From Flavobacteriaceae bacterium (GTDB taxonomy: Bacteria; Bacteroidota; Bacteroidia; Flavobacteriales; Flavobacteriaceae), in the NCBI GenBank assembly GCA_965224465.1, contig OZ245049.1:5130001-5162000 (forward strand): DNA of 32,000 nt, written 5' to 3'. Shown piece by piece: positions 1-29,465 of this stretch. The notes below the pieces were generated by a model, which was given only the letters and a program-made list of their open reading frames with translations, ran no database searches and was not told where the DNA came from. A program made the translations under genes and the position numbers. The first letter of the stretch is position 1; each line of letters starts with the position of its first letter.

Positions 1-162
1 TCTTATAACCGATTTTAAAACGCATGCCTAAATACTGCTATATAAAACAAATCAGTATCAAAAAACAGAACGATAGTTAAGTCTATCCACCCCTTTTTTC
101 GCCTAGCTAAAATAAAAATTATGTCCATTTCTAAGCCGTCACTTCTAAATGTATTTAGTATT
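1..162 (-). repeat. Intergenic repeat family, copy D (inverted orientation, cut by the window edge, distal half diverged)
   Basis: The reverse complement of 60-162 reads aatactaaatacatttagaagtgacggcttagaaatggacataatttttattttagctaggcgaaaaaagg..cgttctgtttttt. This aligns with the left and central parts of the copies at 2973, 15585 and 29296. The distal part (1-60) shares only the atcggtta motif. Confidence 0.7.
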
Positions 163-429
163 AGATTCGTACAAGGATATCAGTACGCTGCTTTATAGAG
201 GGAATGTGAGGTTTTTAAAGCTGCTTTATCTAAAATAGTTGCAAGGCAGCTGTACAAACATCAAAGAATTTAAAATAAAAGCATAAAAAGTATTGAATGC
301 ATTCATTGATTTATAGCGAGTATTGCACAAAAGAGTCCTTTAATAGGAATAGGATCCTTTATTTCACCCATCATCTTACATTTTTAACAAAAAAACACAC
401 CTAATGCCACGATAATCAAAACAGTTTAT

Positions 430-456: not shown

Positions 457-1302
457 ATGGCAACAACACAACAATTACAAGATTTTTCACAACAAGTTCG
501 AAGAGATATTCTTAGAATGGTACACGCTGTACAATCAGGGCATCCAGGAGGGTCTTTAGGTTGTACTGAGTTTTTAACAGTTTTATTTCAAGAGGTAATG
601 GATCACGATCCATCTTTTAATATGGATGCGAAAAACGAAGATGTATTTTTCTTGTCAAATGGTCATATTTCACCTGTTTTATACAGTGTGTTAGCACGTA
701 GTGGATATTTCCCAGTAAGTGAATTGGCAACGTTTAGATTGTTAAACACCCGTTTACAAGGACACCCAACTACGCATGAAGGATTGCCTGGTGTGCGTAT
801 TGCATCGGGATCTTTAGGACAGGGAATGAGTGTTGCTATTGGAGTAGCAGAGGCTAAAAAATTGGATGGAGATACTAAGACTGTGTATACATTGCACGGT
901 GATGGTGAATTACAAGAAGGTCAAGTTTGGGAATCAGCAATGTATGCTGCAGGAAAAAACGTAGACAATTTAATTTGTACTATAGATTATAATAAAAAGC
1001 AAATTGATGGCCCTACAGATCTCGTAATGCCTATGGGTGATTTAAGAGCGAAATTTGAAGCTTTTGGTTGGATTGTTTTGGATGTTGATAAAGGAAACGA
1101 TATTGAGGCTATTAAAAAAGGATTGTCAGAAGCTAAATCTAAAACAGGAAACGGAAAACCTGTATGTATTTTATTACACTCAGAAATGGGGAATGGGGTA
1201 GATTTTATGATGGGAACACATGCTTGGCATGGAAAACCACCAAGTGATGATCAGTTGGCATCTGCTTTAGCTCAGAATCCTGAGACATTGGGAGACTATT
1301 AA
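457..1302 (+). CDS. Transketolase, N-terminal (thiamine-diphosphate-binding) subunit of a split transketolase
   Basis: 281 aa. Contains SGHPGGSLG near the N-terminus and a GDGELQEG Mg/ThDP-binding motif. Its length matches the N-terminal half only. Confidence 0.9.
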   Translation: MATTQQLQDFSQQVRRDILRMVHAVQSGHPGGSLGCTEFLTVLFQEVMDHDPSFNMDAKNEDVFFLSNGHISPVLYSVLARSGYFPVSELATFRLLNTRLQGHPTTHEGLPGVRIASGSLGQGMSVAIGVAEAKKLDGDTKTVYTLHGDGELQEGQVWESAMYAAGKNVDNLICTIDYNKKQIDGPTDLVMPMGDLRAKFEAFGWIVLDVDKGNDIEAIKKGLSEAKSKTGNGKPVCILLHSEMGNGVDFMMGTHAWHGKPPSDDQLASALAQNPETLGDY

Positions 1303-1326
1303 GAAATTAGAAAATAAACATATACG

Positions 1327-1357
1327 AAGCTCTCTGTCATTGATAGAGAGCTTTTTT
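1327..1357 (+). terminator. Rho-independent terminator after the transketolase subunit
   Basis: 9-bp perfect stem AAGCTCTCT/AGAGAGCTT with a 9-nt loop, followed by a T-run. Confidence 0.8.
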
Positions 1358-1441
1358 AACGTATTTTTTTAAAGAAATACGCTGTATTTTGTAAGTAAAC
1401 CATTATTTTTACGAACAAAGAAAGATTAAATTTTAAAATAT

Positions 1442-2578
1442 ATGAAAATAGGTATTGTGTGTTATCCAACATTTGGAGGGAGTGGGGTAGTGGCAACAGA
1501 ATTAGGAATGGCTTTGGCAGAAAAAGGGCATCAGGTTCATTTTATCACTTATAAACAACCTGTACGTTTAGATTTTATTAGCGATAATATTCATTTTCAT
1601 GAAGTTTTTGTGGAGGAATATCCCCTGTTTCAGTTTCAGCCATACGAATTGGCTTTATCTAGTAAAATGGTGGAAGTTGTAGAAATGCATCACTTAGAAA
1701 TACTGCATGTACATTATGCAATTCCTCATGCATATGCGGCTTATATGGCCAAACAAATGCTCGCAGAAAAAGGGATTTCTGTAAAGGTAGTTACCACGCT
1801 ACACGGTACAGATATTACGTTGGTTGGAAGTCATCCTACCTATAAAACGGCGGTAGAATTTAGCATTAACAATTCGGATGTTGTAACCACGGTTTCTGAT
1901 AGTTTAAAAAGAGATACACTGCGCTTGTTTGATATTAAAAAAGAAATTAAAGTTATTTATAATTTTATAGACTTTGAAAAATACCCTAAAATTACAGATG
2001 CAGAGTGCAAACGGAATTCAATTGCTAAAAATAACGAACGTATTATTTCACATGTTAGTAACCTGAGAGAAGTGAAACGTCCATTGGATGTGATTAAAAT
2101 TTTTTCAAGGATAGAAAAAGCCATTCCTTCTAAATTATTGGTGATTGGAGATGGACCTGCTCGCGAGTCTATGGAATGTTTGACAAAAGAGTTGGGGCTG
2201 TCAGAAAAGGTGTTGTTTTTAGGGAATAGTAATGAGGTAGGAAAACTATTGTGTTATTCTGATTTGTTCTTGTTACCTTCAGAAACCGAGAGTTTTGGTT
2301 TGGCGGCATTGGAAGCAATGGCAGCTAGGACACCGGTAATTTCAACAAATTCAGGAGGTTTACCAGAAGTAAATTTTCATGGTAAAACAGGATACCTCAG
2401 TGATATTGGAGATATAAAGGACATGGCAGATAATGCCATTTTTATGCTGAAAGATGAGGAGCGTTTGGCTGCATTTAAAATAAGGGCTTTTGAAAATGCG
2501 CAAAGATTCTCACTTCAAAACGTACTTCCTAGCTATAAAAAAATATACAAGGATGTGATTGGGGAAGATTGTGACTAG
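1442..2578 (+). CDS. bshA: GT4 glycosyltransferase, N-acetyl-alpha-D-glucosaminyl L-malate synthase (bacillithiol biosynthesis)
   Basis: The N-terminus MKIGIVCYPTFGGSGVVATELGMALAEKGHQVHFIT closely resembles characterised BshA. A C-terminal E-x7-E type GT4 motif (SETESFGLAALEAMA) is present. Confidence 0.8.
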   Translation: MKIGIVCYPTFGGSGVVATELGMALAEKGHQVHFITYKQPVRLDFISDNIHFHEVFVEEYPLFQFQPYELALSSKMVEVVEMHHLEILHVHYAIPHAYAAYMAKQMLAEKGISVKVVTTLHGTDITLVGSHPTYKTAVEFSINNSDVVTTVSDSLKRDTLRLFDIKKEIKVIYNFIDFEKYPKITDAECKRNSIAKNNERIISHVSNLREVKRPLDVIKIFSRIEKAIPSKLLVIGDGPARESMECLTKELGLSEKVLFLGNSNEVGKLLCYSDLFLLPSETESFGLAALEAMAARTPVISTNSGGLPEVNFHGKTGYLSDIGDIKDMADNAIFMLKDEERLAAFKIRAFENAQRFSLQNVLPSYKKIYKDVIGEDCD

Positions 2579-2793: not shown

Positions 2794-2845
2794 GATACCA
2801 AATGTATTTCTATATGGAAGTGTACATCGGTCATTTGGATGTGTT
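2794..2845 (+). repeat. Internally deleted mini-derivative of the intergenic repeat (both termini joined)
   Basis: gataccaaatgtatttc..aagtg matches the left terminus and tacatcggtcatttggatgtg matches the right terminus of the full-length copies. About 105 bp of internal sequence is missing. Confidence 0.6.
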
Positions 2846-2972
2846 TTGGCTATGGAACCCATTTGTTTTTGTGAAATCGTATCATTATATTAAATTATTT
2901 TCCACAAGGTAAAAGTTAAAATAGCTTGTAAAAAAGAAACAATATAATGCGGCATTATAAGGTTAAATACGA

Positions 2973-3135
2973 GTTATACCAAATATATTTTCAAGTGACG
3001 ATTTAGAAATGGAATTATTTTTTGTTCTAGCTAGGCGGAAAATCTAAGGATAGCCTTTATCGTTCTATTTTTTAAGAACGCTAGAACGTAAAATAAACTA
3101 TTTACATCGGTTATTTTGGATTGTAATTGATATTA
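2973..3135 (+). repeat. Intergenic repeat family, copy A (full length)
   Basis: Aligns over its whole length with 15585-15738 and 29296-29450. Shared blocks are gttataccaaata, gacg(a/g)tttagaaatggaattatttttt, taggcg(g)aaaat, aacgctagaacgtaaaataaactattta(c/t)atcggt and attttggatt. Confidence 0.85.
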
Positions 3136-3156
3136 GCCCTCTAGTAGAGGACAGGT

Positions 3157-4312: not shown

Positions 4313-5479
4313 GTGAAAAACATATTTAACAACACAAAAACAGCATTTGCCTTAAAGACTGATAGTCAGTTAGAAAGAGCGTATTTTTTGTTTGGAATGA
4401 TTAAGCGAGAACCCTTAGTGAAAATAGGGACGGCATTGACTAAGTTTGCTTTGAATGCAAGGTTACCAGTAGAAAGACTTATAAGGGCAACAGTGTTTGA
4501 TCATTTTTGTGGTGGGGTTACTGAAGAAGATTGTATGCCGAATATAAATAAAATGTATACTAAAAATGTACATTCTATCTTGGATTATTCAGCAGAAGGA
4601 AAAGAAGTAGAAGAACAGTTTGATTTTGCAATGTATAAAACCCTCAATACTATTGTATATGCTAAAGAGAATAAATCAATTCCATTTGCGGTATTTAAAC
4701 CTACAGGTTTTGGTAAATTAAGTTTGTATCAGAAGGTGTCTGAAGGAGAAAAATTAGATGCTCATGAGGAGGTAGAATGGAAACGTATAGTAGAACGTTA
4801 CAATACGGTGAGTAAGGCTGCAGAAAAAGCCAATGTGCCATTACTTATAGATGCTGAAGAATCTTGGATGCAGGATGCAGCAGATCAATTGATAGAACGC
4901 ATGATGGAAAAATACAATACAGAGCGGGTGATTGTGTTTGGAACCTTGCAATTGTATCGTTGGGATCGTATGGATTACTTAAAAGGATTGTACGAAAGAG
5001 CGCAAAATAAAGGCTTTAAAATTGGGATGAAATTAGTGCGCGGAGCTTATATGGAAAAAGAACGTGAGCGTGCAGAAGAATATGGCTATAAAGATCCTAT
5101 TTGTGCAAGCAAAGAAATTACAGATGCCAATTACAATGCGGTGCTTTCTTATATGTTTGAACATCTTAGAGATATGGCTATATTTTCTGGGACTCATAAC
5201 GAGGATAGCTCTAAATTAATGATGGATTTGATTGATAAACATGGATTGTCTGTGAACGATCCTCGTTTGTGGTTTGGTCAATTGTTCGGTATGAGCGATC
5301 ATATTAGTTATAATTTGAGTGAGCGCTCCTTTAATGTCGCTAAATATTTGCCATTTGGTCCGGTAAAAGATGTGATGCCTTATTTGATTAGACGTGCAGA
5401 AGAAAACACCTCTGTAGCAGGGCAAACAACTAGAGAATTAGACTTGATTAGCACGGAACGAAAACGAAGAAAAATGTAA
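4313..5479 (+). CDS. Proline dehydrogenase (monofunctional PRODH family)
   Basis: 388 aa. PRODH-like blocks are present (LVRGAYMEKERERA, YLPFGPVKDVMPYLIRRAEENTS). The start is a GTG as given by the ORF track, so the exact start is uncertain. Confidence 0.8.
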   Translation: MKNIFNNTKTAFALKTDSQLERAYFLFGMIKREPLVKIGTALTKFALNARLPVERLIRATVFDHFCGGVTEEDCMPNINKMYTKNVHSILDYSAEGKEVEEQFDFAMYKTLNTIVYAKENKSIPFAVFKPTGFGKLSLYQKVSEGEKLDAHEEVEWKRIVERYNTVSKAAEKANVPLLIDAEESWMQDAADQLIERMMEKYNTERVIVFGTLQLYRWDRMDYLKGLYERAQNKGFKIGMKLVRGAYMEKERERAEEYGYKDPICASKEITDANYNAVLSYMFEHLRDMAIFSGTHNEDSSKLMMDLIDKHGLSVNDPRLWFGQLFGMSDHISYNLSERSFNVAKYLPFGPVKDVMPYLIRRAEENTSVAGQTTRELDLISTERKRRKM

Positions 5480-8449: not shown

Positions 8450-8560
8450 CTCATATTTAAGTTTTTGATTTGGAAATGGAAGAATTATTTTTTATATTTG
8501 ACTGTAGTAAGCAATCACATTTATAAAACAAGAAGTGTTTTATCGGTTGTATTGAAAACC
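8450..8560 (+). repeat. Possible degenerate, shortened copy of the intergenic repeat
   Basis: aagtttttgatttggaaatggaagaattatttttt resembles the left module and gttttatcggttgtattg resembles the right terminus. The central hairpin region is absent and the match is weak. Confidence 0.35.
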
Positions 8561-9833: not shown

Positions 9834-12800
9834 ATGTTCAAGAAATCATTTTTTGTATTCGTTATTCTTGTTTTTTTTATTCCTAATTTTTTGTTTTCAC
9901 AAACAGTTCTTAAAGCAGGTGATCTTGTTTTTTTAGGGATTAATGCTGATGGTCCTGCTTCAAATCATGTGGTTTCTGTACTGTTTTTAGTTGATGTTGC
10001 TGCTGGTACAGAAATATCATTTACCGATATAGGATGGGATAGTGTTAATTCTAAGTTTAAAGCGGGCTTGGGACTGGGTGATTATTTTTTTAGATATACT
10101 ATAGGAACTGCTGTGAATCGTGGTACAATACGTAAAATCGCTTTGAGTTTTTTGGGACACCCAAGAGGCGTTTATGATCCTGTAACTATAGGTGTTGATG
10201 AGCGTAAAGGGGATCAACTATTTGCTTTTCAAGGGGGCTGGGGAAACCCAAGACTTATTACGGGACTAACAACCTTTGTAGATAGCAATACATCGGATAA
10301 CCTTTGGGATGGATCTGCTACCAGCCTATATAATTCGGGCTTACCAAGTGGTTTATCAAATGGAGATACCGCTATTAGATTGCATGTTGGAACTTTACAT
10401 AAAGACAATTGGCAGTTTAATTGTAATTTGATGACAGGAGGAGAGACGATATCAGGAAAACCTGTAGATATCCGTGCTGCTGTTTACAATGTATCTAATT
10501 GGGATTCTTCAAATACAGTTACGTATGATCCGAAAGGAAACACCAGTTGTTCTTATAATGTGTATTGTGAAGCCGCTGTACTTACTAGTTTTAGCACTAT
10601 AGAAAATCCTTGTTATGATCAAGAAATAACAATCACTATTGTTGGGGACTTAAATGAAGCTACGGAATGGCAAATTCTTAAAGGTTCATGTTCAGGAACC
10701 ACAACTGTTATCGGTACAACCTCTAGCAATACTTTTTCTTTTAATATTACAGAAAGTAATACCTATGCTGTTCGACCTTCTGGTGGATGTGCTTTTTCTG
10801 GAAGTCCATGTTTTGAAAAGGAAATAAAATTAGAAACGGTTAAACCAATCGTAAAAATAAAAAATAATAAGGTAGAATTAGGCACTGATGGAAAAGCTTC
10901 AATAACAGTTTCAGACATTAATAATGGAAGTTCGGACAATTGTTCTATTGCAACAATGTCTTTGGATATAACGGAATTTGAGTGTTCAAATTTAGGTGAT
11001 AATACAGTGATTTTAACGATAAAAGATTCATCTGGAAATGTGCAGACGAAATCGGCGCAGGTTACTGTTGAAGATAAAATATTACCTGTAGCAATCGCCC
11101 AAAATATAACAGTTCATTTAGATGCCACAGGAAACGTGAGTATTACACCAGCTGATGTAAATAATGGAAGTACAGACAATTGTGCTATTGCTTCTATGAG
11201 TCTTAATAAAACAAGTTTTGATTGTACAAATTTAGGCGTAAATACGGTGATTTTAACGGTGAAAGATGCTTCTGGAAATTCAAATGTTGCAACTGTAACT
11301 GTAACGGTAAAAGATACTATTCCCCCTTCCATAATTGCCAAGGATATTTCTGTATATATTTCTGCTGACGGTAGCGTAACGGTAAATCCTTCTGATGTTG
11401 ATAATGGCAGCGCAGATAATTGTGGAATTGCAAGCAGAAGTTTGAGTAAAACTACGTTTAGCTGTGGAGATATAGGTGAGAATACCGTGATTTTTTCTGT
11501 AGAAGATTCTACGGGGAATACGCTGACTGCAAATGTAAAAATCACAGTTTTTGATGCTCTAAAACCTACAGTAAAAACAAAAAATATCACGGTAGAATTA
11601 GGCACTGATGGAAAAGCTTCAATAACAGTTTCAGACATTAACAATGGAAGTTCGGACAATTGTTCTATTGCAACAATGTCTTTGGATATAACGGAATTTG
11701 AGTGTTCAAATTTAGGTGATAATACAGTGATTTTAACGATAAAAGATACATCAGGGAATGTGCAGACGAAATCGGCGCAGGTTGCTGTTGAAGATAAAAT
11801 ATTACCTGTAGCAATTGCCCAAAATATAACAGTTCATTTAGATGCCACAGGAAACGTGAGTATTACACCAGCTGATGTAAATAATGGAAGTACAGACAAT
11901 TGTGCTATTGCTTCTATGAGTCTTAATAAAACAAGTTTTGATTGTACAAATTTAGGCGTAAATACGGTGATTTTAACGGTGAAAGATGCTTCTGGAAATT
12001 CAAATGTTGCAACTGTAACTGTAACGGTAAAAGATACTATTCCCCCTTCCATAATTGCCAAGGATATTTCTGTATATATTTCTGCTGACGGTAGCGTAAC
12101 GGTAAATCCTTCTGATGTTGATAATGGCAGCGCAGATAATTGTGGAATTGCAAGCAGAAGTTTGAGTAAAACTACGTTTAGCTGTGGAGATATAGGTGAG
12201 AATACCGTGATTTTTTCTGTAGAAGATTCTACGGGGAATACGCTGACTGCAAATGTAAAAATCACAGTTTTTGATGCTCTAAAACCTACAGTAAAAACAA
12301 AAAATATCACGGTAGAATTAGGCACTGATGGAAAAGCTTCAATAACAGTTTCAGATATTAATAATGGAAGTTCGGACAATTGCTCTATTGCAACAATGTC
12401 TTTGGATATAACGGAATTTGAGTGTTCAAATTTAGGTGATAATACAGTGATTTTAACGATAGAAGATACATCGGGAAATGTGCAGACGAAATCGGCGCAG
12501 GTTACTGTTGTAGATGAAATATTACCTGTAGCAATCGCTCAAAATATAACAGTTAATTTGGATGCCACAGGAAACGTGAGTATTTCGGCAGCGGCTTTAA
12601 ATAATGGAAGTTCAGACAATTGTTCTATTGCTTCTATGAGTCTTAATAAAACAAGTTTTGATTGTACAAATTTAGGCGTTAATACGGTGATTTTAACGGT
12701 GAAAGATACTTCTGGAAATTCAAATGTTGCAACTGTAACTGTAACGGTAAAAGATGCTATTCCCCCTTCCATAATTGCTAAGGATATTTCTGTATATATT

Positions 12801-15575
12801 TCTGCTGACGGTAGCGTAACGGTAAATCCTTCTGATGTTGATAATGGCAGCGCAGATAATTGTGGAATTGCAAGCAGAAGTTTGAGTAAAACTACGTTTA
12901 GCTGTGGAGATATAGGAGAGCATACCGTGCTTTTTTCTGTAGAGGATTCTACGGGGAATACGCAGACTGAAAATGTAAAAATCACAGTTTTTGATGCTCT
13001 AAAACCCATTGTAAAAACAAAAAATATCACGGTAGAATTAGGCACTGATGGAAAAGCTTCAATAACAGTTTCAGATATTAATAATGGAAGTTCGGACAAT
13101 TGCTCTATTGCAACAATGTCTTTGGATATAACGGAATTTGAGTGTTCAAATTTAGGTGATAATACAGTGATTTTAACGATAAAAGATACATCAGGGAATG
13201 TGCAGACGAAATCGGCGCAGGTTACTGTTGAAGATAAAATATTACCTGTAGCAATCGCCCAAAATATAACAGTTCATTTAGATGCCACAGGAAACGTGAG
13301 TATTACACCAGCTGATGTAAATAATGGAAGTACAGACAATTGTACTATTGCCTCTATGAGTCTTAATAAAACAAGTTTTGATTGTACAAATTTAGGTGTA
13401 AATACGGTGATTTTAACGGTGAAAGATACTTCTGGAAATTCAAATGTTGCAACTGTAACTGTAACGGTAAAAGATACTATTCCCCCTTCCATAATTGCTA
13501 AGGATATTTCTGTATATATTTCTGCTGACGGTAGCGTAACGGTAAATCCTTCTGATGTTGATAATGGCAGCGCAGATAATTGTGGAATTGCAAGCAGAAG
13601 TTTGAGTAAAACTACGTTTAGCTGTGGAGATATAGGAGAGCATACCGTGCTTTTTTCTGTAGAGGATTCTACGGGGAATACGCAGACTGAAAATGTAAAA
13701 ATCACAGTTTTTGATGCTCTAAAACCCATTGTAAAAACAAAAAATATCTCGGTAGAATTAGGCACTGATGGAAAAGCTTCAATAGCAGTTTCACACATTA
13801 ACAATGGAAGTTCGGACAATTGTTCTATTGCAACAATGTCTTTGGATATAACGGAATTTGAGTGTTCAAATTTAGGTGATAATACAGTGATTTTAACGAT
13901 AAAAGATACATCTGGGAATGTGCAGACGAAATCGGCGCAGGTTACCGTTGTTGATAATATACCTCCTGCCGTGATTGCCAAACAGAATATAACTGTTAGT
14001 TTGGATGGCACAGGGAAAGCGAGTATTACACCAGCTGACGTAAATAATGGAAGTACAGACAATTGTACTATTGCCTCTATGAGTCTTGATAAAACAAGTT
14101 TTGATTGTTCTAATTTAGGTAAAAATCAAGTGAGGCTTTCTGTACAAGATACTGCTGGAAATTCAAATTCTGTAAATGCAATTGTAACGGTTTTAGATAT
14201 GATTATGCCCACCATTCAATGCATCACCGATCAAACGGTCTCCTTTTCTAAAAGTTGTAATGTTTCTTTAAAGGATTATACAAAGCAGCTTACATACACA
14301 GATAATTGCCTACAAGGAATAAAAATCACTCAAACACCTGTACATGGAACTTTAATACAAGAAGATACAGAGGTTGTTATTACGGTGACTGATGGCAGTG
14401 GAAATACAAATACGTGTAGATTTATGGTTTTCACTAAAGATACAACAGCTCCAGAAATAACCTGTCCTGTAAATCTTAGGATTGGATTAAATTCAGCGTG
14501 TAATATTCAGGTGCCAGATTTTAAAAGTGTTGTAAATGTGATTGGTTTTTGCGATTCAAATGTAAGTCTTACACAGCTACCTAAAGTAGGTACTGTTATC
14601 GATGAGAATACAAAAATTGTAATTACTGCTACAGATGATAGTGGTAATACGAATAGCTGTAGTTTTCTGTTAATAGTTGCAGATGTCCTAGCTCCAGTTC
14701 CCGCCGTTGCCATATTGCCTATAGTAACTGGGGTTTGCCAAGCAAGTGTAACTGATGCGCCGTTGGCTATAGATAATTGTCAAGGTATAATTGTTGGGAC
14801 GACCTCTAGTGCTCTAAATTTTGATGCGCAAGGAAACTATACCATTACTTGGAAATACGATGATGGTGTTGGTAATATAGCATGGCAAACTCAGAAAATA
14901 GTAATTAAGGATCAAGTATTGCCGATTGTTAAAGTGAAAGATTTTAAAGTTGTAAACGCGGGTGAGGATGTCTTTATAAGCGTGGAAGATATAGATAATG
15001 GTAGTTCTGATAATTGTGCTATTAAATTCATGAAACTGAGTAATACTGATTTTTCGTGCTATCCTATAGGTGATTATGCGGTTACTTTAATCGTTGAAGA
15101 TATTAGTGGGAATATAGAGGAAGCTACTGCAATTATAAGTATTGATGGAGATGATTTAGATCATGATTTAATTCCGGATAGTTGTGACGGAGATATGGAT
15201 GGTGATGGTATAATTAATAGTGAGGACAACTGTCCGACCATACCTAATACGGATCAGTTAGATATTGATAACGATGGGATTGGAGATGTTTGTGATTCAA
15301 ATGATTTGGTGTTTTCTAAAGGGTTTTCACCCAATGGTGATGGTTTAAGAGACTATTTTATAATACAAAATGTAGTGAATTACCCAAAGAGTACACTTCG
15401 TGTTTACAATAGAAACGGAAATTTAGTTTTTAAAACAAATCAGTATAAGAATGATTGGAATGGACGTTTAAATGGTGTAGGCAATAATCAACTTCCAGCA
15501 GGTGCTTATTTTTATAGTTTTGATAAAGGGACGAATCAGGTGCCAGTTCAAGGTTGGGTATATATTAATTATTAA
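9834..15575 (+). CDS. Giant T9SS-secreted adhesin-like surface protein. Domain order: signal peptide, unknown N-terminal domain, about 15 Ig-like DNC modules, HYR-like modules, TSP3-type Ca-binding repeats, type-B T9SS C-terminal domain.
   Basis: 1913 aa. N-terminal hydrophobic signal FFVFVILVFFIPNFLFSQ. About 80-aa modules recur with the motif D(I/V)NNGS(S/T)DNCxIA..SL. Cys-framed HYR-like modules follow (TAPEITCP..C..TDDSGNTNSC). DxDxDG repeats are present (DSCDGDMDGDGIINSEDNCP..DIDNDGIGDVCD). The C-terminus FSPNGDGLRDYFIIQN...GWVYINY matches the gliding-motility / type-B T9SS sorting domain. Confidence 0.9.
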   Translation: MFKKSFFVFVILVFFIPNFLFSQTVLKAGDLVFLGINADGPASNHVVSVLFLVDVAAGTEISFTDIGWDSVNSKFKAGLGLGDYFFRYTIGTAVNRGTIRKIALSFLGHPRGVYDPVTIGVDERKGDQLFAFQGGWGNPRLITGLTTFVDSNTSDNLWDGSATSLYNSGLPSGLSNGDTAIRLHVGTLHKDNWQFNCNLMTGGETISGKPVDIRAAVYNVSNWDSSNTVTYDPKGNTSCSYNVYCEAAVLTSFSTIENPCYDQEITITIVGDLNEATEWQILKGSCSGTTTVIGTTSSNTFSFNITESNTYAVRPSGGCAFSGSPCFEKEIKLETVKPIVKIKNNKVELGTDGKASITVSDINNGSSDNCSIATMSLDITEFECSNLGDNTVILTIKDSSGNVQTKSAQVTVEDKILPVAIAQNITVHLDATGNVSITPADVNNGSTDNCAIASMSLNKTSFDCTNLGVNTVILTVKDASGNSNVATVTVTVKDTIPPSIIAKDISVYISADGSVTVNPSDVDNGSADNCGIASRSLSKTTFSCGDIGENTVIFSVEDSTGNTLTANVKITVFDALKPTVKTKNITVELGTDGKASITVSDINNGSSDNCSIATMSLDITEFECSNLGDNTVILTIKDTSGNVQTKSAQVAVEDKILPVAIAQNITVHLDATGNVSITPADVNNGSTDNCAIASMSLNKTSFDCTNLGVNTVILTVKDASGNSNVATVTVTVKDTIPPSIIAKDISVYISADGSVTVNPSDVDNGSADNCGIASRSLSKTTFSCGDIGENTVIFSVEDSTGNTLTANVKITVFDALKPTVKTKNITVELGTDGKASITVSDINNGSSDNCSIATMSLDITEFECSNLGDNTVILTIEDTSGNVQTKSAQVTVVDEILPVAIAQNITVNLDATGNVSISAAALNNGSSDNCSIASMSLNKTSFDCTNLGVNTVILTVKDTSGNSNVATVTVTVKDAIPPSIIAKDISVYISADGSVTVNPSDVDNGSADNCGIASRSLSKTTFSCGDIGEHTVLFSVEDSTGNTQTENVKITVFDALKPIVKTKNITVELGTDGKASITVSDINNGSSDNCSIATMSLDITEFECSNLGDNTVILTIKDTSGNVQTKSAQVTVEDKILPVAIAQNITVHLDATGNVSITPADVNNGSTDNCTIASMSLNKTSFDCTNLGVNTVILTVKDTSGNSNVATVTVTVKDTIPPSIIAKDISVYISADGSVTVNPSDVDNGSADNCGIASRSLSKTTFSCGDIGEHTVLFSVEDSTGNTQTENVKITVFDALKPIVKTKNISVELGTDGKASIAVSHINNGSSDNCSIATMSLDITEFECSNLGDNTVILTIKDTSGNVQTKSAQVTVVDNIPPAVIAKQNITVSLDGTGKASITPADVNNGSTDNCTIASMSLDKTSFDCSNLGKNQVRLSVQDTAGNSNSVNAIVTVLDMIMPTIQCITDQTVSFSKSCNVSLKDYTKQLTYTDNCLQGIKITQTPVHGTLIQEDTEVVITVTDGSGNTNTCRFMVFTKDTTAPEITCPVNLRIGLNSACNIQVPDFKSVVNVIGFCDSNVSLTQLPKVGTVIDENTKIVITATDDSGNTNSCSFLLIVADVLAPVPAVAILPIVTGVCQASVTDAPLAIDNCQGIIVGTTSSALNFDAQGNYTITWKYDDGVGNIAWQTQKIVIKDQVLPIVKVKDFKVVNAGEDVFISVEDIDNGSSDNCAIKFMKLSNTDFSCYPIGDYAVTLIVEDISGNIEEATAIISIDGDDLDHDLIPDSCDGDMDGDGIINSEDNCPTIPNTDQLDIDNDGIGDVCDSNDLVFSKGFSPNGDGLRDYFIIQNVVNYPKSTLRVYNRNGNLVFKTNQYKNDWNGRLNGVGNNQLPAGAYFYSFDKGTNQVPVQGWVYINY
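10842..14200 (+). repeat. In-frame tandem array with a 720-bp period, about 4.7 copies. Each unit is three diverged 240-bp (80-aa) modules.
   Basis: The string ggtagaattaggcactgatgg recurs at 10871, 11591, 12311, 13031 and 13751, an exact 720-bp spacing. Units are almost identical. The fifth unit decays after about 13945. Confidence 0.97.
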
Positions 15576-15584
15576 GCATGCCTG

Positions 15585-15738
15585 TTATACCAAATACATT
15601 TCCAAGTGAGGGTTAGAAATGGAATTATAGCTAGTCGGAAAATGGATGGATATCCATATCTATTGTTCTGTTTTTCAACAACGCTAGAACGTGAAATAAA
15701 CTATTTATATCGGTGATTTTGGATTTTAGTTGGTATTA
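15585..15738 (+). repeat. Intergenic repeat family, copy B (full length, small internal deletion)
   Basis: Starts 10 nt after the adhesin stop codon. Collinear with copies A and C. Lacks the ttttttgtt segment present in A and C. Confidence 0.85.
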
Positions 15739-17622: not shown

Positions 17623-17646
17623 TTTTAAGTTTTTTTAAGAGATATA

Positions 17647-17675
17647 AAGTCATCCATTTGGGTGACTTTTTTTTT
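17647..17675 (+). terminator. Rho-independent terminator after guaB
   Basis: Stem AAGTCATCC/GGGTGACTT (one G-U pair) with an ATTT loop, followed by T9. Confidence 0.75.
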
Positions 17676-17683
17676 CGATAAGG

Positions 17684-17700
17684 CCAAATATTTTTGCAAG
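17684..17700 (+). repeat. Intergenic repeat copy E, left fragment (split by the IS66 insertion)
   Basis: Reads ccaaatatttttgcaag. It continues at 19689 as tgacggtttagaaatagaattatttttt, and together the two parts match the left module of the family. Confidence 0.65.
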
Positions 17701-17728
17701 GTAAGCATGCGGTCAAGTACATCTATGT

Positions 17729-19192
17729 TTATACGTTTTTCCAATTACCAGGAAGAAGTTCATATAGTTTATTTGCTTTATGTTCTTGGATTCTGTCCAA
17801 TACATTTTCAAGCCAAGTATAAGGATTAATACCATAAGCTTTGCAGGAAGCAAAAAAGGAATACATCATTGCAATATTTTCTGCAGCATTGTGAGAACCT
17901 GCAAATAAGTAATTTTTACGACCTAAAGCTAATGGCCTGACCGCATTTTCTATATTGTTATTGTCTATCTCAAATTTGCCATCCAAGACGTATCTATTTA
18001 GATTTTCATAAATATTCATGGTATAGGCTATTGCCTTACCTATTGCGCTTTTAGGTAATACTTTATAACTATTTTCTTCTAACCATATTTTTAATGCATC
18101 CAAAATAGGTACAGCATATAATTGTCTATACCTTTTTAGAATGCCCACTTCTACTTTCCTATCTCTAGCTTTTTCTTCAATCTGATATAGGAGTTGTATT
18201 TGTTTTAAAACGTGACCAGCTCTATCTTTATCGTTATCTAGGGCTTTCTCAAAATACCTTCTTGCATGTGCCATACAGCCCAAAAGTGTTATTTCTCCTT
18301 TTGTTTGAAGTATTTGGTAAACTTTGTAGCCATCCGTCTGTAAGATTCCTGTAAAGTTTGATAAAACGCGTTCTGGAAGTTTACGGCTACGTCCTTGATC
18401 ATACTTAAATAGTACAAGCTTGTTTTGTGGATTTCTGAAAAGCCACATATAACCTTGATGTAAAGCCTTTACTTTATGACTATCCTGTACTTTTATAGGT
18501 GATTCATCTGCTTGTAAATAATCTGTATTTTCTAAAACTTGAGATTCTAAGGCTTCAAAAAGAGGACGTATCAATTTACAAGTTCCGTTAAACCAATCTC
18601 CCATAGTAGAAGCGCTAATTATTAAGTTTTGGCGCTTTAGAATTTGAATTTGTCTGTAAAAAGGTAGATGATCTATAAATTTTGAAACACAAACATAAGC
18701 TAACATTCCTGCCCCTGCATTAGATCTTGGAATAGGGAGACTGGGTAAATCTGCAATTAAAACCCCTTGTTTATACGCATATTTTGGTCTTATAATCTGA
18801 CGTACATAGATATTTGCGGGATTGTACTCCAATATTTCTGTAATCTCTTCTCCTATTTTCTTTGCGCCATGTTCTTTATCTAGGGGTTCTATAATCTCCG
18901 TTACTCTAGGTAAGTGAGCAGGTAAAATCATACGAATTGGCTTCTTCTTTTCTTTCTTATTGAGCTTTCTAGTATATGTAATCGTTTTTTCTTTTTCTTC
19001 TACTTGATCGCATGCAGAAGTCCCTGTAAATAAATCTATTTGCGCATCAATACTAGGGATAAAACGTTCCGTTTTCCTTCCAAAAAGAGCTCGTTGTAAC
19101 TGATCTAATTGAAACTTTAAATCTGCGTTGTCAGAGCAAACTTTATCGTACTTTTCTTTTGAAACATATTCCACCTCAAGCGTTCTATCCAT
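17729..19192 (-). CDS. tnpC: IS66-family DDE transposase (TnpC/Orf3)
   Basis: 487 aa. Has an N-terminal coiled-coil/leucine-zipper region followed by LFGRKTERF, and IS66-like catalytic blocks (ADESPIKV, QTDGYKVY, CMAHARRYF). Confidence 0.9.
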   Translation of the reverse strand: MDRTLEVEYVSKEKYDKVCSDNADLKFQLDQLQRALFGRKTERFIPSIDAQIDLFTGTSACDQVEEKEKTITYTRKLNKKEKKKPIRMILPAHLPRVTEIIEPLDKEHGAKKIGEEITEILEYNPANIYVRQIIRPKYAYKQGVLIADLPSLPIPRSNAGAGMLAYVCVSKFIDHLPFYRQIQILKRQNLIISASTMGDWFNGTCKLIRPLFEALESQVLENTDYLQADESPIKVQDSHKVKALHQGYMWLFRNPQNKLVLFKYDQGRSRKLPERVLSNFTGILQTDGYKVYQILQTKGEITLLGCMAHARRYFEKALDNDKDRAGHVLKQIQLLYQIEEKARDRKVEVGILKRYRQLYAVPILDALKIWLEENSYKVLPKSAIGKAIAYTMNIYENLNRYVLDGKFEIDNNNIENAVRPLALGRKNYLFAGSHNAAENIAMMYSFFASCKAYGINPYTWLENVLDRIQEHKANKLYELLPGNWKNV

Positions 19193-19260
19193 AGTAGAAA
19201 GATACGCTTTTTAAGCTGAAATATCACTATTAAAACCAAGTAATACCAAGGAGTTACCTG

Positions 19261-19602
19261 TTAAAATCTCTTTCTTTTTTTGATGTTTAAAATACTAATT
19301 CCATCAATTAACATAACTGTACTAGTGTAGTCTAAAATAATCAAACTTGTGTCAATATCATATTCAGAAAGTTCAAATGTACCTTCTTCTAATCGTTTGT
19401 AATAAAGAACAAACCCTCCTCCTGCCCAATGTAATAATTTCATTTTGTTTCGCCGCTTATTTATGAAAATAAAAACCGAACTACTTGTGGGTACTTGATC
19501 AAAAGCAGTCAATATAAGACCACTCAGACCGTCAAAACTTTTTCGCATATCTGTACTTTCACTGTACAAATAAAACTTTTGGGAACTTGATAAATTGAAC
19601 AT
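19261..19602 (-). CDS. tnpB: IS66 Orf2-like accessory protein (TnpB of IS66, unrelated to IS605 TnpB)
   Basis: 113 aa. Contains the typical DMRKSFDGLSGL motif near the N-terminus and LYYKRLE..F further on. Confidence 0.88.
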   Translation of the reverse strand: MFNLSSSQKFYLYSESTDMRKSFDGLSGLILTAFDQVPTSSSVFIFINKRRNKMKLLHWAGGGFVLYYKRLEEGTFELSEYDIDTSLIILDYTSTVMLIDGISILNIKKRKRF

Positions 19603-19680
19603 GTTATAGGTTGCTTTTATGAATTACAAAGCAAAAACTATTCATTTAGATGTGCAATATGTAGGACGCCGTATGCTTAC

Positions 19681-19717
19681 TTTGCAAGTGACGGTTTAGA
19701 AATAGAATTATTTTTTA
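19681..19717 (+). repeat. Intergenic repeat copy E, right fragment (includes the duplicated TSD at 19681-19688)
   Basis: tttgcaagtgacggtttagaaatagaattatttttt matches the family's left module. Homology ends at the miaA 3' end. The miaA stop codon (19708-19710) and its last two Lys codons lie inside the matching sequence. Confidence 0.65.
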
Positions 19718-20619
19718 GAAGTGTTTTTATCAATAAATAAACGTATTTCTTCAAAATCTACATCGGAATCAAACCAAGTAATTGTGGGGTCTTTTTTAAA
19801 CCAAGTAATTTGGCGCTTTGCAAAACGACGGGTGTTTTTCTTAATCTCTTCAATTGCAAATTCCAATGATATTTCTCCGTCAAAATGCAAGAATAATTCT
19901 CTATATCCAACGGTTTGAAGTGCGTTTAACGACTTGTATTTGTGCAATGTTCGTGCTTCTTCTAGCAGTCCGTTTGCTATCATAATGTCTACGCGTTGAT
20001 TGATGCGATCATACATTAATTGTCTGTCGCTACGCAATCCTATTTGTACACTGTTAAAATTCCTAGGAGTTTTTGGTTTATTTTTAAACGAACTATACGT
20101 TTGTCCACTACCAATGCATACTTCTAAGGCACGGATTAGTCTGTGTGGATTGTCTAGTGCGATGTTATGGTATGATTCGGGGTCAAGCTTTAATAATTGC
20201 TGCTGTAAGGTTTGTATCCCTTTTTCTTCTAAGTCTGTTGTTAGTTGTATTCTTATTTCAGGAGCAACATCTGGGAAATAGTCCAAGCCTTTCAAAACTG
20301 CATTTACATACAATCCACTTCCGCCTACCATTACAACACTGGAATTGTCCTTGTGTAAATCGGTGATTTTAAGCAAGGCATCTCTTTCAAAACCACCGAC
20401 ACTATAATTTTCAAATACAGACCTGTTTTGAATAAAATAATGTGGAACAGCGGCTAATTCTTCCGCATTGGGAACAGCGGTTCCGATGGACATTTCTTTA
20501 TAAAATTGACGTGAATCACAAGAAATAATAGCGCAGTTTAAATGCTGTGCTATTTGTATACTTAAAGCAGTTTTTCCGATGGCTGTAGGGCCAACAACGG
20601 TAAATAAATGTTTAGTCAT
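19708..20619 (-). CDS. miaA: tRNA dimethylallyltransferase
   Basis: 303 aa. Has the P-loop VVGPTAIGKT and MiaA blocks (DSRQFYKEMSIGTA, GGSGLY, RRFAKRQITWF). Confidence 0.93.
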   Translation of the reverse strand: MTKHLFTVVGPTAIGKTALSIQIAQHLNCAIISCDSRQFYKEMSIGTAVPNAEELAAVPHYFIQNRSVFENYSVGGFERDALLKITDLHKDNSSVVMVGGSGLYVNAVLKGLDYFPDVAPEIRIQLTTDLEEKGIQTLQQQLLKLDPESYHNIALDNPHRLIRALEVCIGSGQTYSSFKNKPKTPRNFNSVQIGLRSDRQLMYDRINQRVDIMIANGLLEEARTLHKYKSLNALQTVGYRELFLHFDGEISLEFAIEEIKKNTRRFAKRQITWFKKDPTITWFDSDVDFEEIRLFIDKNTSKK

Positions 20620-21433
20620 GGTTTAGTTTTTCGCCACAGTTGTAGCAATAATCGGCATGGTCAAAATGATTTTCAGAACTGCACTCAGGGCAGCTTTGAG
20701 TGTTGGTACTTATAGCGTCTTGTTTGGTTATTTCGGAAGTGACAATACCTGTAGGTACGGCAATTATACCATAGCCTAGAATCATTACAATGCTCGCAAT
20801 AAATTGCCCTAAAGCAGTGTGAGGAGCAATATCTCCATAACCTACAGTAGTTAATGTGACGATTGCCCAATACATACTTTTAGGAATGTTATCAAAGCCA
20901 TTTTCTGCACCTTCCACCAAATACATGACCGTTCCTAAAATAATTGTCAATACAATCACGGCAAATAAAAACACTAATATTTTTGCTTTACTAGCTTTTA
21001 AAGCTTGAATTAATTTGTTAGAAGCACCCAAATAACGAGCAAGCTTTAAAATCCGAAAAACACGGAGTAGGCGCAATGCTCTTAAAGCAATTAGCACATG
21101 CCCTGCGCCAAATATTAAAGATAGATATTTAGGAATCGTAGCTAAAAAATCAATAATGCCATAAAAGCTAAAAATATAATGCCAAGGTTTTTTAATAGAA
21201 ATAATGCGAAGAATATATTCTATAGTAAACAGAATGGTTACTACCCATTCTGCGGTATTTAAAAAGTTATGGTAATTTGCATCAATACTTTGAACACTTT
21301 CGAGCATCACTAATATGATGCTTAATAAAATGATAAAAATAAGCAGCACATCAAAGCGTTTTCCTGCTTTGGTGTCAGCCTCATAAATGATTTCGTGGAG
21401 TTTAGATTTCCACAAGCTATTTTTTTTTGTCAT
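20612..21433 (-). CDS. Voltage-gated-type (6TM) K+ channel with a C-terminal CxxC..CxxC zinc ribbon
   Basis: Has an S4-like segment LRALRLLRVFRILKLARYL and the selectivity filter TLTTVGYGD. The C-terminal tail is CPECSSENHFDHADYCYNCGEKL. Its stop overlaps the miaA ATG (ATGACTAA). Confidence 0.85.
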   Translation of the reverse strand: MTKKNSLWKSKLHEIIYEADTKAGKRFDVLLIFIILLSIILVMLESVQSIDANYHNFLNTAEWVVTILFTIEYILRIISIKKPWHYIFSFYGIIDFLATIPKYLSLIFGAGHVLIALRALRLLRVFRILKLARYLGASNKLIQALKASKAKILVFLFAVIVLTIILGTVMYLVEGAENGFDNIPKSMYWAIVTLTTVGYGDIAPHTALGQFIASIVMILGYGIIAVPTGIVTSEITKQDAISTNTQSCPECSSENHFDHADYCYNCGEKLNHD

Positions 21434-21436
21434 AAA

Positions 21437-22516
21437 TTAAAATCGAACAATTTTTCCTACACGGTTACTTTGTAGGTATTTTTTGATAATCAATCTGTTT
21501 TGATCATTGTTTTTTAGTGGCGTAATCATCGTATGTAAAATGTCTATTTTTTCAATTTGATGTGCCAAATCCACAAAACAATAACCTATTAGGATGTCAT
21601 TTTCGATTAAAATTACTGATTTTTCTCCAATTGTACGTCCTTTATCAATCAATAAAAGGTTGGGATTGGAAAATTGGACTTTTTTATATTGTTTTATATG
21701 GCTGATGTTAAACTGGGGAGCCTTTGCAGCAAGCTCTTGAACGTAAATTAATTGCAGCAAGAGTTGGTAACCTGTTTGGTCGTAACTAATAGAACTTACA
21801 TCACGTTGAATACGCTTTGCATTTTTACTGTCTTTTAGAAATAATTGATTTACAGCTCTCTGTATGTTTTTTCCTTTGCCTATATATTGTATTGTTCCGT
21901 CAGCTGTATGGACGTAAAACACACCTTTTGTCTTCGGTAATTCAAGCAATAATTTTTGTAGCTTTGGTGCTAGGTTTTGTTTTATTTCTGGATGTATAGA
22001 CCCTGAAACAATTTCTTTATGAACATCTTTTTGTAAGAGTAGTTTAAATAATTGTACCGTAGCAAGTGCATCTCCGTCTGCTCTGTGTCTGCTGGATATA
22101 GGGATTCCTAAAGATTTGCATAGGCGTCCTAGTTTGTAAGATTCTACTTCTGGAATTAAGGTCTTACTTAGTTCTACTGTACATAAGGACTTTCGGATAA
22201 AATCATAACCCAATCGTGTGAATTCGGTTCGTAAAATTCGATAATCAAAAGTAGCGTTGTGCGCTACTATTACACAGTCTTGAGTGATTTCTACAATTCG
22301 TTTTGCTACCTCGTGAAATTTTGGTGCATTGCGAACCATTTTGCTGTTTATTCCCGTTAGTTGTACTACAAAAGGTTGTATTTCACGCTCTGGATTTACC
22401 AAGCTTACAAAATTATCAATCACCGTATGACCGTCAAATTTATAAATGGCTATTTCCGTAATTCCTTCTTCGTTGAATTTCCCCCCTGTGGTTTCTATGT
22501 CTAATATTGCGTACAC
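21437..22516 (-). CDS. DnaQ-like 3'-5' exonuclease fused to a GIY-YIG-like nuclease domain
   Basis: Exo I is LDIETTG, Exo II is VAHNATFDYRIL and Exo III is HRADGDALAT. The C-terminal half contains GVFYVH..IQYIGKGKNIQRAVNQ, which resembles GIY-YIG. Confidence 0.75.
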   Translation of the reverse strand: MYAILDIETTGGKFNEEGITEIAIYKFDGHTVIDNFVSLVNPEREIQPFVVQLTGINSKMVRNAPKFHEVAKRIVEITQDCVIVAHNATFDYRILRTEFTRLGYDFIRKSLCTVELSKTLIPEVESYKLGRLCKSLGIPISSRHRADGDALATVQLFKLLLQKDVHKEIVSGSIHPEIKQNLAPKLQKLLLELPKTKGVFYVHTADGTIQYIGKGKNIQRAVNQLFLKDSKNAKRIQRDVSSISYDQTGYQLLLQLIYVQELAAKAPQFNISHIKQYKKVQFSNPNLLLIDKGRTIGEKSVILIENDILIGYCFVDLAHQIEKIDILHTMITPLKNNDQNRLIIKKYLQSNRVGKIVRF

Positions 22517-29188: not shown

Positions 29189-29230
29189 TGCTTTATTAAA
29201 TAGTAGAGGTGTATTGTGTCTCTTCTCATA

Positions 29231-29271
29231 AAAAAAAATCCGTTAAATAGTTTATTTAACGGATTTTTTTG
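29231..29271. terminator. Bidirectional Rho-independent terminator
   Basis: A8, then stem ATCCGTTAAAT/ATTTAACGGAT (11 bp, 5-nt loop), then T7. Confidence 0.85.
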
Positions 29272-29295: not shown

Positions 29296-29450
29296 TATAC
29301 CAACTACATTTCCGACGGTTTAGAAATGGAATTATTTTTTGTTTTAGTTAGGCGAAAAATCTAAGGATATCCTTAGATATGGTTCTGTTTTTCAACAACG
29401 CTAGAACGTAAAATAAACTATTTATATCGGTCATTTTGGATTGTAATTAT
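29296..29450 (+). repeat. Intergenic repeat family, copy C (full length)
   Basis: Collinear with copies A and B. Contains the perfect palindrome CTAAGGATATCCTTAG (29361-29376). Ends 16 nt before the stop of the convergent MFS transporter gene. Confidence 0.85.
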
Positions 29451-29465
29451 AAGTGTTTTGAAGCT

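Follow-up and report, generated by a model that had tools for sequence, protein, structure and literature searches.

The window analysed here, a stretch of 32,000 nucleotides from a Flavobacteriaceae bacterium (contig OZ245049.1), harbors several copies of an intergenic repeat which is very probably a MITE, that is, a non-coding element that is about 159 bp long, has TIRs of 11 bp and would be cut and pasted by a transposase encoded elsewhere into T-W-A trinucleotides, thereby duplicating 3 bp. This assignment is based on the features by which MITEs are defined: the element is small and of uniform size (the range for prokaryotic MITEs being about 50-800 bp), its TIRs exceed the usual minimum of about 10 bp, it is bounded by a target-site duplication, it has no conserved ORF and hence no coding capacity, it is dispersed in multiple copies, and at a single locus a precise empty site is available. 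By its TWA targeting and its fold-back structure it represents a Tourist-like, unnamed MITE family and is thus an example of a well-known kind of element; a named description of the family was not found in the literature. A sequence-only reading of the same DNA had proposed a dispersed, non-coding intergenic family, and in this general point it was right, as indicated by the profile matches and by copies that at least four further assemblies carry at unrelated loci.

Repeat finding within the window linked the segments 3022-3128, 15625-15731 and 29342-29448 and returned an inverted match at 95-161. Similarly, an nhmmer profile made from eight full copies matched positions 2975-3138 (E 2e-48), 29296-29448 (E 2e-47) and 15586-15738 (E 2e-42), all on the + strand, in agreement with the three collinear long copies described previously; on the minus strand the profile matched positions 162-57 with model positions 2-106 only (E 3e-19). 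A 23-base core which is present in all four long copies, expressed as the pattern TTAGAAATGGA-N(2-20)-TAGYTAGKCGRAAAA, occurs four times in the window, compared to 0.00 occurrences expected from shuffles. The confirmed inventory consists of three full and two partial copies. The first full copy (2974..3135, + strand; element proper 2977-3132, 156 bp) is enclosed by direct TTA trinucleotides at 2974-2976 and 3133-3135 and is located between a gene for a GT4 glycosyltransferase and the aroB stop codon, at a distance of about 21-22 nt from the latter; its predicted RNA fold has a free energy of -36.9 kcal/mol (z -3.6). The second (15585..15738, + strand; element 15588-15735, 148 bp) has suffered a 10-bp internal deletion, has direct TTA on either side (15585-15587 and 15736-15738), and begins 10 nt 3' of the stop codon of a gene encoding a 1913-aa T9SS adhesin. 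The third (29298..29452, + strand) is full-length with a decayed 3' terminus (TTGTAATTATAA) and a duplication that is not intact (CTA / GTG); it resides between a terminator-like hairpin downstream of cutC and the stop codon of an MFS transporter gene, 16 nt from this stop. The distances to stop codons are as they had been claimed.

Some of the neighboring sequences deserve mention in their own right. The hairpin next to the third copy (AAAAAATCCGTTAAATAGTTTATTTAACGGATTTTTTT) is accompanied by A and T tracts and is situated between the convergent cutC and MFS genes, at about 29215-29260 in the window and about 5311-5368 in the related locus L006; it is kept in relatives, which the surrounding intergenic DNA is not, and looks like a bidirectional intrinsic terminator. 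The 1913-aa surface protein upstream of the second copy (9834-15575) possesses a CHU_C type IX secretion sorting domain and HYR/Ig-like repeats, and bases 10842-14215 of its gene are composed of 240-bp units arranged in 720-bp super-repeats of 94-98% identity; at the corresponding position, next to the IMPDH gene, relatives carry DJ-1/PfpI and cyclase genes. Downstream of aroB, where the window has the first copy, two related JGI metagenome contigs have an (AACCAAC)n microsatellite that extends to the contig end (L009 1-108 and L010 1-49).

The copy at the left edge of the window (57..163, minus strand) covers model positions 2-106, or the first two-thirds of the element, with its 5' end at 160 and TAA preceding it at 163-161. 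It had been thought to span positions 1-162, to be cut by the window edge and to have a diverged distal half. The inverted copy as such is real, but in bases 1-56 no similarity to the 3' half of the element was detectable (score 18; null mean 17), and therefore the copy is truncated, or forms a junction with something else, rather than being cut by the window. Immediately after it, a minus-strand ATG at 27-25 opens an ORF (MRFKIGYK...) which runs off the left edge. The upstream neighbor of the transketolase gene is different in relatives, where a CAT-family acetyltransferase is encoded on the other strand, and the stretch 1-56 may accordingly belong to the native intergenic sequence or, alternatively, to the inside of a longer element.

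The second partial copy is a 5' fragment that is split by an insertion sequence. Its left piece (17684..17700, + strand; CCAAATATTTTTGCAAG) ends with the 8 nt that constitute the target duplication of an IS66-family element, and its right piece (19681..19716, + strand; nhmmer E 3e-4), in which 19681-19688 repeats TTTGCAAG, corresponds to consensus positions of about 9-49. Removal of the IS66 element joins 17684-17700 to 19689-19716 and restores a 5' fragment of about 50 nt, which ends at the miaA stop codon (19708-19710) and reaches a local alignment score of 63 against a null maximum of 36, a value attained by 0 of 1000 shuffles; the IS-split partial copy proposed earlier is thus real. The IS66-family insertion sequence itself (17701..19680, minus strand, 1980 bp) has TIRs of the sequence GTAAGCATGCGG/CCGTATGCTTAC, and the 8 bp duplicated around it, TTTGCAAG, are located at 17693-17700 and 19681-19688. 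It encodes TnpB_IS66 (19261-19602, minus strand) and a DDE_Tnp_IS66 transposase (17729-19192, minus strand), with Pfam E values of 9e-87 and 2e-29, has no tnpA ORF, and is accompanied by a second, slightly different IS66 transposase copy in the same genome. We also considered this IS66 element as the mobilizer of the repeat and rejected it, since its ends (GTAAGC...) and its 8-bp duplication are different. In relatives (L006 16739-17833) a 294-aa Exo_endo_phos gene is located between miaA and the IMPDH gene, where the window (17623-19707) has the MITE fragment and IS66 instead; as the fragment extends precisely to the stop codon of miaA, this suggests an element-associated deletion or else a gain in the relatives. 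A further difference in gene content was observed at 20612-22516 of the window, where genes for an RNase_T protein and an ion channel are adjacent and only 3 nt apart; in relatives (L006 11958-15834) a 652-aa DUF3857/transglutaminase-like gene lies between them.

Two additional derivatives had been suggested. A 52-bp mini copy, originally placed at 2794-2845, can be delimited as a possible internally deleted derivative at 2796..2853 (+ strand), with a 5' TIR-like part (TACCAAATGTATTTCT) and a part resembling the 3' end (TACATCGGTCATTTGGATGTGTTTTGGCTA). The TIR-like 16-mer has three mismatches, the score of 23 is equaled by 21 of 1000 shuffles, the nhmmer E value is 8.7 and the candidate has no TWA flanks, so that it is suggestive only. 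It sits in intergenic DNA specific to the window, where it is overlapped by an 86-aa GTG-start ORF (2614-2874); this ORF has no Pfam match, is wholly contained in an intergenic stretch of about 400 nt absent in relatives, and is probably spurious and not a gene. The weak degenerate copy reported at about 8450-8560 had to be dropped: it gave no nhmmer match at E<=10, and its local score of 32 is that of the background elsewhere (30-31). Accordingly, the apparent preference of six of seven copies for one orientation is reduced to four of the five confirmed copies, which is not significant. All three truncated copies, namely the two in the window (57-160, and 17684-17700 with 19689-19716) and one in the related locus L020, have kept only the 5' half.

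The ends of the element were determined from an alignment of nine full copies from the window and from other genomes. The similarity among them begins exactly at TACC and stops exactly at GGTA, and beyond these ends the flanks of the copies are unrelated to each other. The consensus of 159 bp reads TACCAAATACATTTCCAAGTGACGGTTTAGAAATGGAATTATTTTTTGTTTTAGCTAGGCGAAAAATCTAAGGATAGCCNTAGCTATCGTTCTATTTTTNAACAACGATAAAACGTAAAATAAACCATTTATATCGGTNATTTTGGATTGTAATTGGTA; the six copies from MAGs and metagenomes are exactly 159 bp long, and the three window copies are 148-156 bp long. The termini TACCAAATACA...TGTAATTGGTA form an 11-bp TIR that matches at 10 of 11 positions in the consensus (the reverse complement of the 3' end being TACCAATTACA). 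In the sequence-only reading the motifs ATACCAAAT and ATCCAAAAT were regarded as termini; as these are internal, the inverted repeat was judged to be weak, and both the target-site duplication and the palindromic nature of the whole element were overlooked. The trinucleotides flanking the nine full copies are TTA/TTA in three cases, TAA/TAA in three, CAA/TAA in one and decayed in two; hence, the 3-bp duplication is perfect in six of nine copies, and a seventh copy deviates by a single mismatch. Since TTA is the reverse complement of TAA, it is by the middle base that a direct repeat can be distinguished from a prolonged inverted repeat. In each of the seven copies that can be read, the two sides share this base, which shows that the trinucleotide is a target-site duplication, the opposite of an extension of the inverted repeat.

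The entire element is an imperfect palindrome with a consensus structure of 55 pairs in three helices. In the alignment 94% of the cells are paired, compared to 37-50% if the partners are slid by 1-3 columns, and folds of single copies have z values of -3.5 to -4.3, as RNA or as DNA. The ORFs of at least 20 aa that touch the element (37 aa; 43 and 28 aa) are incidental, boundary-crossing or copy-specific, and no ORF is conserved across the copies, consistent with the original statement that there is none inside. The pairwise identity of the copies is 76-94%, within and between genomes alike, and there are no near-identical pairs and thus no sign of very recent activity. Some substitutions are diagnostic for the genome, e.g. 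GCTAGAAC in the window versus GATAAAAC in the NORP MAGs.

Evidence for movement of the element comes from a comparison of filled and empty sites. In the MAG NORP150 a copy (locus L001) is bordered by genes for an MBL-fold/rhodanese protein and for a rhodanese, and this intergenic region has 265 nt, compared to 104 nt in NORP129, an ENA assembly and JAESRX01. The filled site reads ...GAAA CAA [159 bp] TAA CTCCC..., and the orthologous empty sites (L013 in NORP129, L016 and L017) read ...GAGT TAA TTCCC... or ...TAATCATTCC.... If the element and one triplet are deleted from the filled site, the remaining sequence aligns without gaps at the insertion point to all three empty sites. Such a precisely alignable empty site is available for this one insertion; the other cases of presence and absence concern diverged intergenic DNA. 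At the locus L004 the flanking histidine-kinase gene has no homologue of more than 70% identity besides the query, and the element is present in every assembly of that population. With regard to the window, three relatives that are syntenic with its 13-32 kb part have no copy in 21 kb. The MFS-cutC intergenic region, which has 277 nt in the window, has 101 nt and no element in L006 and L007, and the copy near aroB is also absent in relatives, where the intergenic region has 176 nt (L020 and L022) as opposed to 578 nt in the window. The intergenic DNA around the window copies is too diverged from that of the relatives for a base-level alignment of empty sites; judged by this comparison of sequences, the window copies are lineage-specific insertions.

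Copies of the element were identified in other genomes as well, and a confinement to the window, which would have pointed to local duplications, was therefore not observed. A scan of a genome collection yielded five copies at unrelated loci, four of them on four contigs of the MAG NORP150 and one in the MAG NORP129. A metagenome scan with a pattern for the left end yielded one full copy on a 91-kb JGI contig (Ga0209395_1000202) and one chance match; another metagenome pattern scan had 0 matches. In the MAG JAESRX01 and two ENA assemblies (L020-L022) a degenerate partial copy corresponding to the 5' half is located just 3' of the transketolase gene, between its stop codon and its terminator (L020 10856-10934, also in L021 and L022; model positions 3-83, E 5e-8), a site which is empty in the window (1302-1442). 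A scan of the related loci for TIR-like 16-mers recovered only the known copies and a few matches with two or three mismatches that have no nhmmer support. No match was obtained in plasmids and phages by blastn, and scans of viral contigs gave 0 matches. One Logan contig breaks off after the first 29 nt of the element, as is usual where a repeat breaks an assembly. By protein identity the host organisms belong to one clade (87-94% among each other, 72-84% to Lutibacter), and the family is so far limited to this Lutibacter-related clade of marine Flavobacteriaceae.

For movement of the element, a transposase provided in trans would have to cut it out, paste it at a T-W-A trinucleotide and duplicate the 3 bp. 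This enzyme might be an IS5 / PIF-Harbinger-type DDE transposase, which we infer with moderate confidence only from the 3-bp TWA duplication, the hallmark of a group whose target specificity is TWA (or TNA / ANT). An autonomous partner, i.e., a transposase gene between matching ends, was not found in the window and about 290 kb of related loci, and thus the attribution is drawn from the duplication alone. Termini starting with GG are common in the IS5/PIF-Harbinger-type group, and those of the present element start with TACC, not GG. In one study GG-start termini are reported for ISL2EU only (PMC4482050).

Commonly, Tourist MITEs and PIF/Harbinger elements of eukaryotes, to which the bacterial IS5 family is related, are short in their non-coding forms, possess TIRs and a 3-bp 5'-TWA-3' duplication, prefer AT-rich non-coding DNA and fold back, and the present element resembles them in these respects; the duplication of 5'-TWA-3' by Tourist and PIF/Harbinger elements is documented in PMC4482050 and PMC2213677. 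In contrast to these eukaryotic elements, the present one has a bacterial host and TACC termini, and a transposase of the Harbinger/IS5 type with matching ends was not encountered here; furthermore, the common target of bacterial IS5 members is 5'-ANT-3', not TWA (PMC4482050). MITEs are known from Bacteroidota, such as the IS982-derived MITECca01 of Cardinium (PMC9769881) and those of P. gingivalis (PMC4596501), and an automated census of 46,051 Bacteroidota genomes arrived at 81,380 distinct MITEs (PMC11602168). Compared by class and not by sequence, MITECca01 and the P. gingivalis MITEs are of the same phylum and the same kind, being non-autonomous, TIR-bounded, present in multiple copies and expanded in a lineage-specific fashion. 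MITECca01 has about 240 bp and a parental IS, ISCca4, whereas the present element has 159 bp and its parent was not found in the window and about 290 kb of related loci.

Imperfect intergenic palindromes of 100-160 bp also occur in Proteobacteria as ERIC/IRU and Correia (NEMIS) elements. The present element is from another phylum, differs in sequence and has an 11-bp TIR, as opposed to the 26-bp TIRs and the promoter, IHF and RNase III features of Correia. ERIC/IRU and Correia elements duplicate TA, not TWA. The RNA hairpins of ERIC and Correia elements, when co-transcribed, can affect mRNA stability or processing. More generally, MITE transcripts are known to form stable secondary structures (review PMC10969869).

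By analogy with these elements, the present copies, which lie 10-25 nt past stop codons and beside intrinsic terminators, may plausibly influence mRNA 3' ends. Most likely, the copies persist by stops and terminators because insertions are tolerated there. As the palindrome extends over the whole element, a transcript reading through it would carry a long hairpin of about 55 bp, by which copies 10-25 nt past stop codons probably alter the structure of the 3'-UTR, mRNA stability or read-through. It might be speculated that the element functions primarily as a structured RNA, be it as an sRNA gene or as a cis element of the 3'-UTR or terminator-like type, and that selection on the hairpin instead of transposition explains both its conservation and its position. 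In line with this, the element folds strongly (z -3.6 and -4.3 for the + strand, compared to -3.0 and -3.9 for the minus strand), four pairs are altered on both sides, which is reached by 13 of 500 shuffles, and G-U mispairs exceed A-C mispairs on the + strand (17 versus 8 column states, p = 0.054). The G-U excess and the four compensated pairs are compatible with selection at the RNA level but do not establish it. If only singleton changes are considered, the ratio of G-U to A-C is 10 to 7, which is not significant; moreover, the copies occur in both orientations relative to the neighboring transcription units, being in sense orientation behind the adhesin gene and at L001 and L004, and in antisense orientation to aroB and the MFS gene and at L002 and L005. 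There is no U-tract after the hairpin, the terminator scan does not flag the element, and no Rfam match was obtained. TIR, duplication and empty site show that the element has spread as DNA, and an RNA function would be at most a secondary role of the MITE; a structured RNA as the primary identity therefore appears quite improbable to us. A joint reading would combine both aspects: the element would be the bacterial counterpart of Tourist MITEs, moved by a PIF/Harbinger-like (DDE_Tnp_4-type) transposase of Flavobacteriaceae with strict TWA targeting, and the hairpin of 55 bp would have been recruited as an RNA module of the 3'-UTR or next to terminators. This would account for the clustering of the copies just past stop codons and beside terminators, but in this full form we consider it unlikely.

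The remaining explanations are less probable still. A palindromic, multi-copy intergenic element near gene 3' ends is reminiscent of REP/REPIN or BIME sequences that are moved by a RAYT (IS200/IS605-like tyrosine/HUH) transposase. Elements of this kind are mobilized without target duplication, in contrast to the 3-bp duplication and 11-bp TIR found here, the unit of 159 bp is not built of 20-40-nt REPs, and no RAYT-like gene was noticed in the window, for which a subset of the ORFs was scanned and the rest annotated by synteny; by unit size and duplication the element does not belong to this group, and we give such an origin very little credence. The same degree of doubt applies to a diverged member of the Flavo-1 motif (RF01705), which is likewise a dispersed intergenic motif across the Flavobacteriaceae without fixed orientation to transcripts (PMC9723704) and has a weak local resemblance in sequence. 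On the L004 copy, Flavo-1 is the best sub-threshold Rfam match, with model positions 13-65 aligning UAGAAAUGGAAUU to UuGaAGcGGAAau, and in F. psychrophilum its matches are sense or antisense to transcripts, as would be those of a DNA repeat (PMC9723704). The match has, however, 13.8 bits compared to a gathering score of 42, with an E value of about 2 in a search of 171-211 nt, and is therefore no membership; on the window copy it is absent at E<=10. Its alignment has several non-canonical pairs, and the local structure clashes with the long-range pairing supported by the alignment of the copies. In addition, Flavo-1 has 76 nt, the element 159 nt, and the structures differ. At the gathering score, Rfam 15 had 0 matches in the 32-kb window and five related loci, and permissive scans returned only noise; the repeat is thus absent from Rfam, in keeping with the earlier view that it is no recognized named family. 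The resemblance of the 5' arm to Flavo-1, which is below threshold (13.8 bits), is located at L004 1891-1940. Independently of the family described here, the Flavo-1 matches of F. psychrophilum, sense or antisense to transcripts, are often outside them (PMC9723704), which raises the question of whether Flavo-1 itself may be a DNA-level repeat and not an RNA. Finally, four copies within 32 kb might be taken for local segmental duplications or for chance similarity confined to the region; the unrelated flanks, the copies at other loci in other genomes, the expectation of 0.00 for the core pattern and the empty site refute this, so that practically no weight is left to it.

The value of identifying the repeat as a MITE is mostly practical and will not surprise specialists for mobile elements. 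For annotation, the family accounts for most of the unexplained intergenic similarity in the window as well as for contig breaks in metagenome assemblies of the clade. For strain typing, the element marks recent genome change: close relatives have it inserted at different sites, and one fragment is located at a rearranged, IS66-hit locus where relatives have an extra gene. If the TWA duplication could be tied to a bacterial Harbinger/IS5-like transposase, the family would provide a clear-cut case of a Tourist-like MITE in prokaryotes. Should the hairpin influence the 3' ends of mRNAs, this would have a bearing on gene expression in the Flavobacteriaceae, a family in which post-transcriptional control is poorly known.
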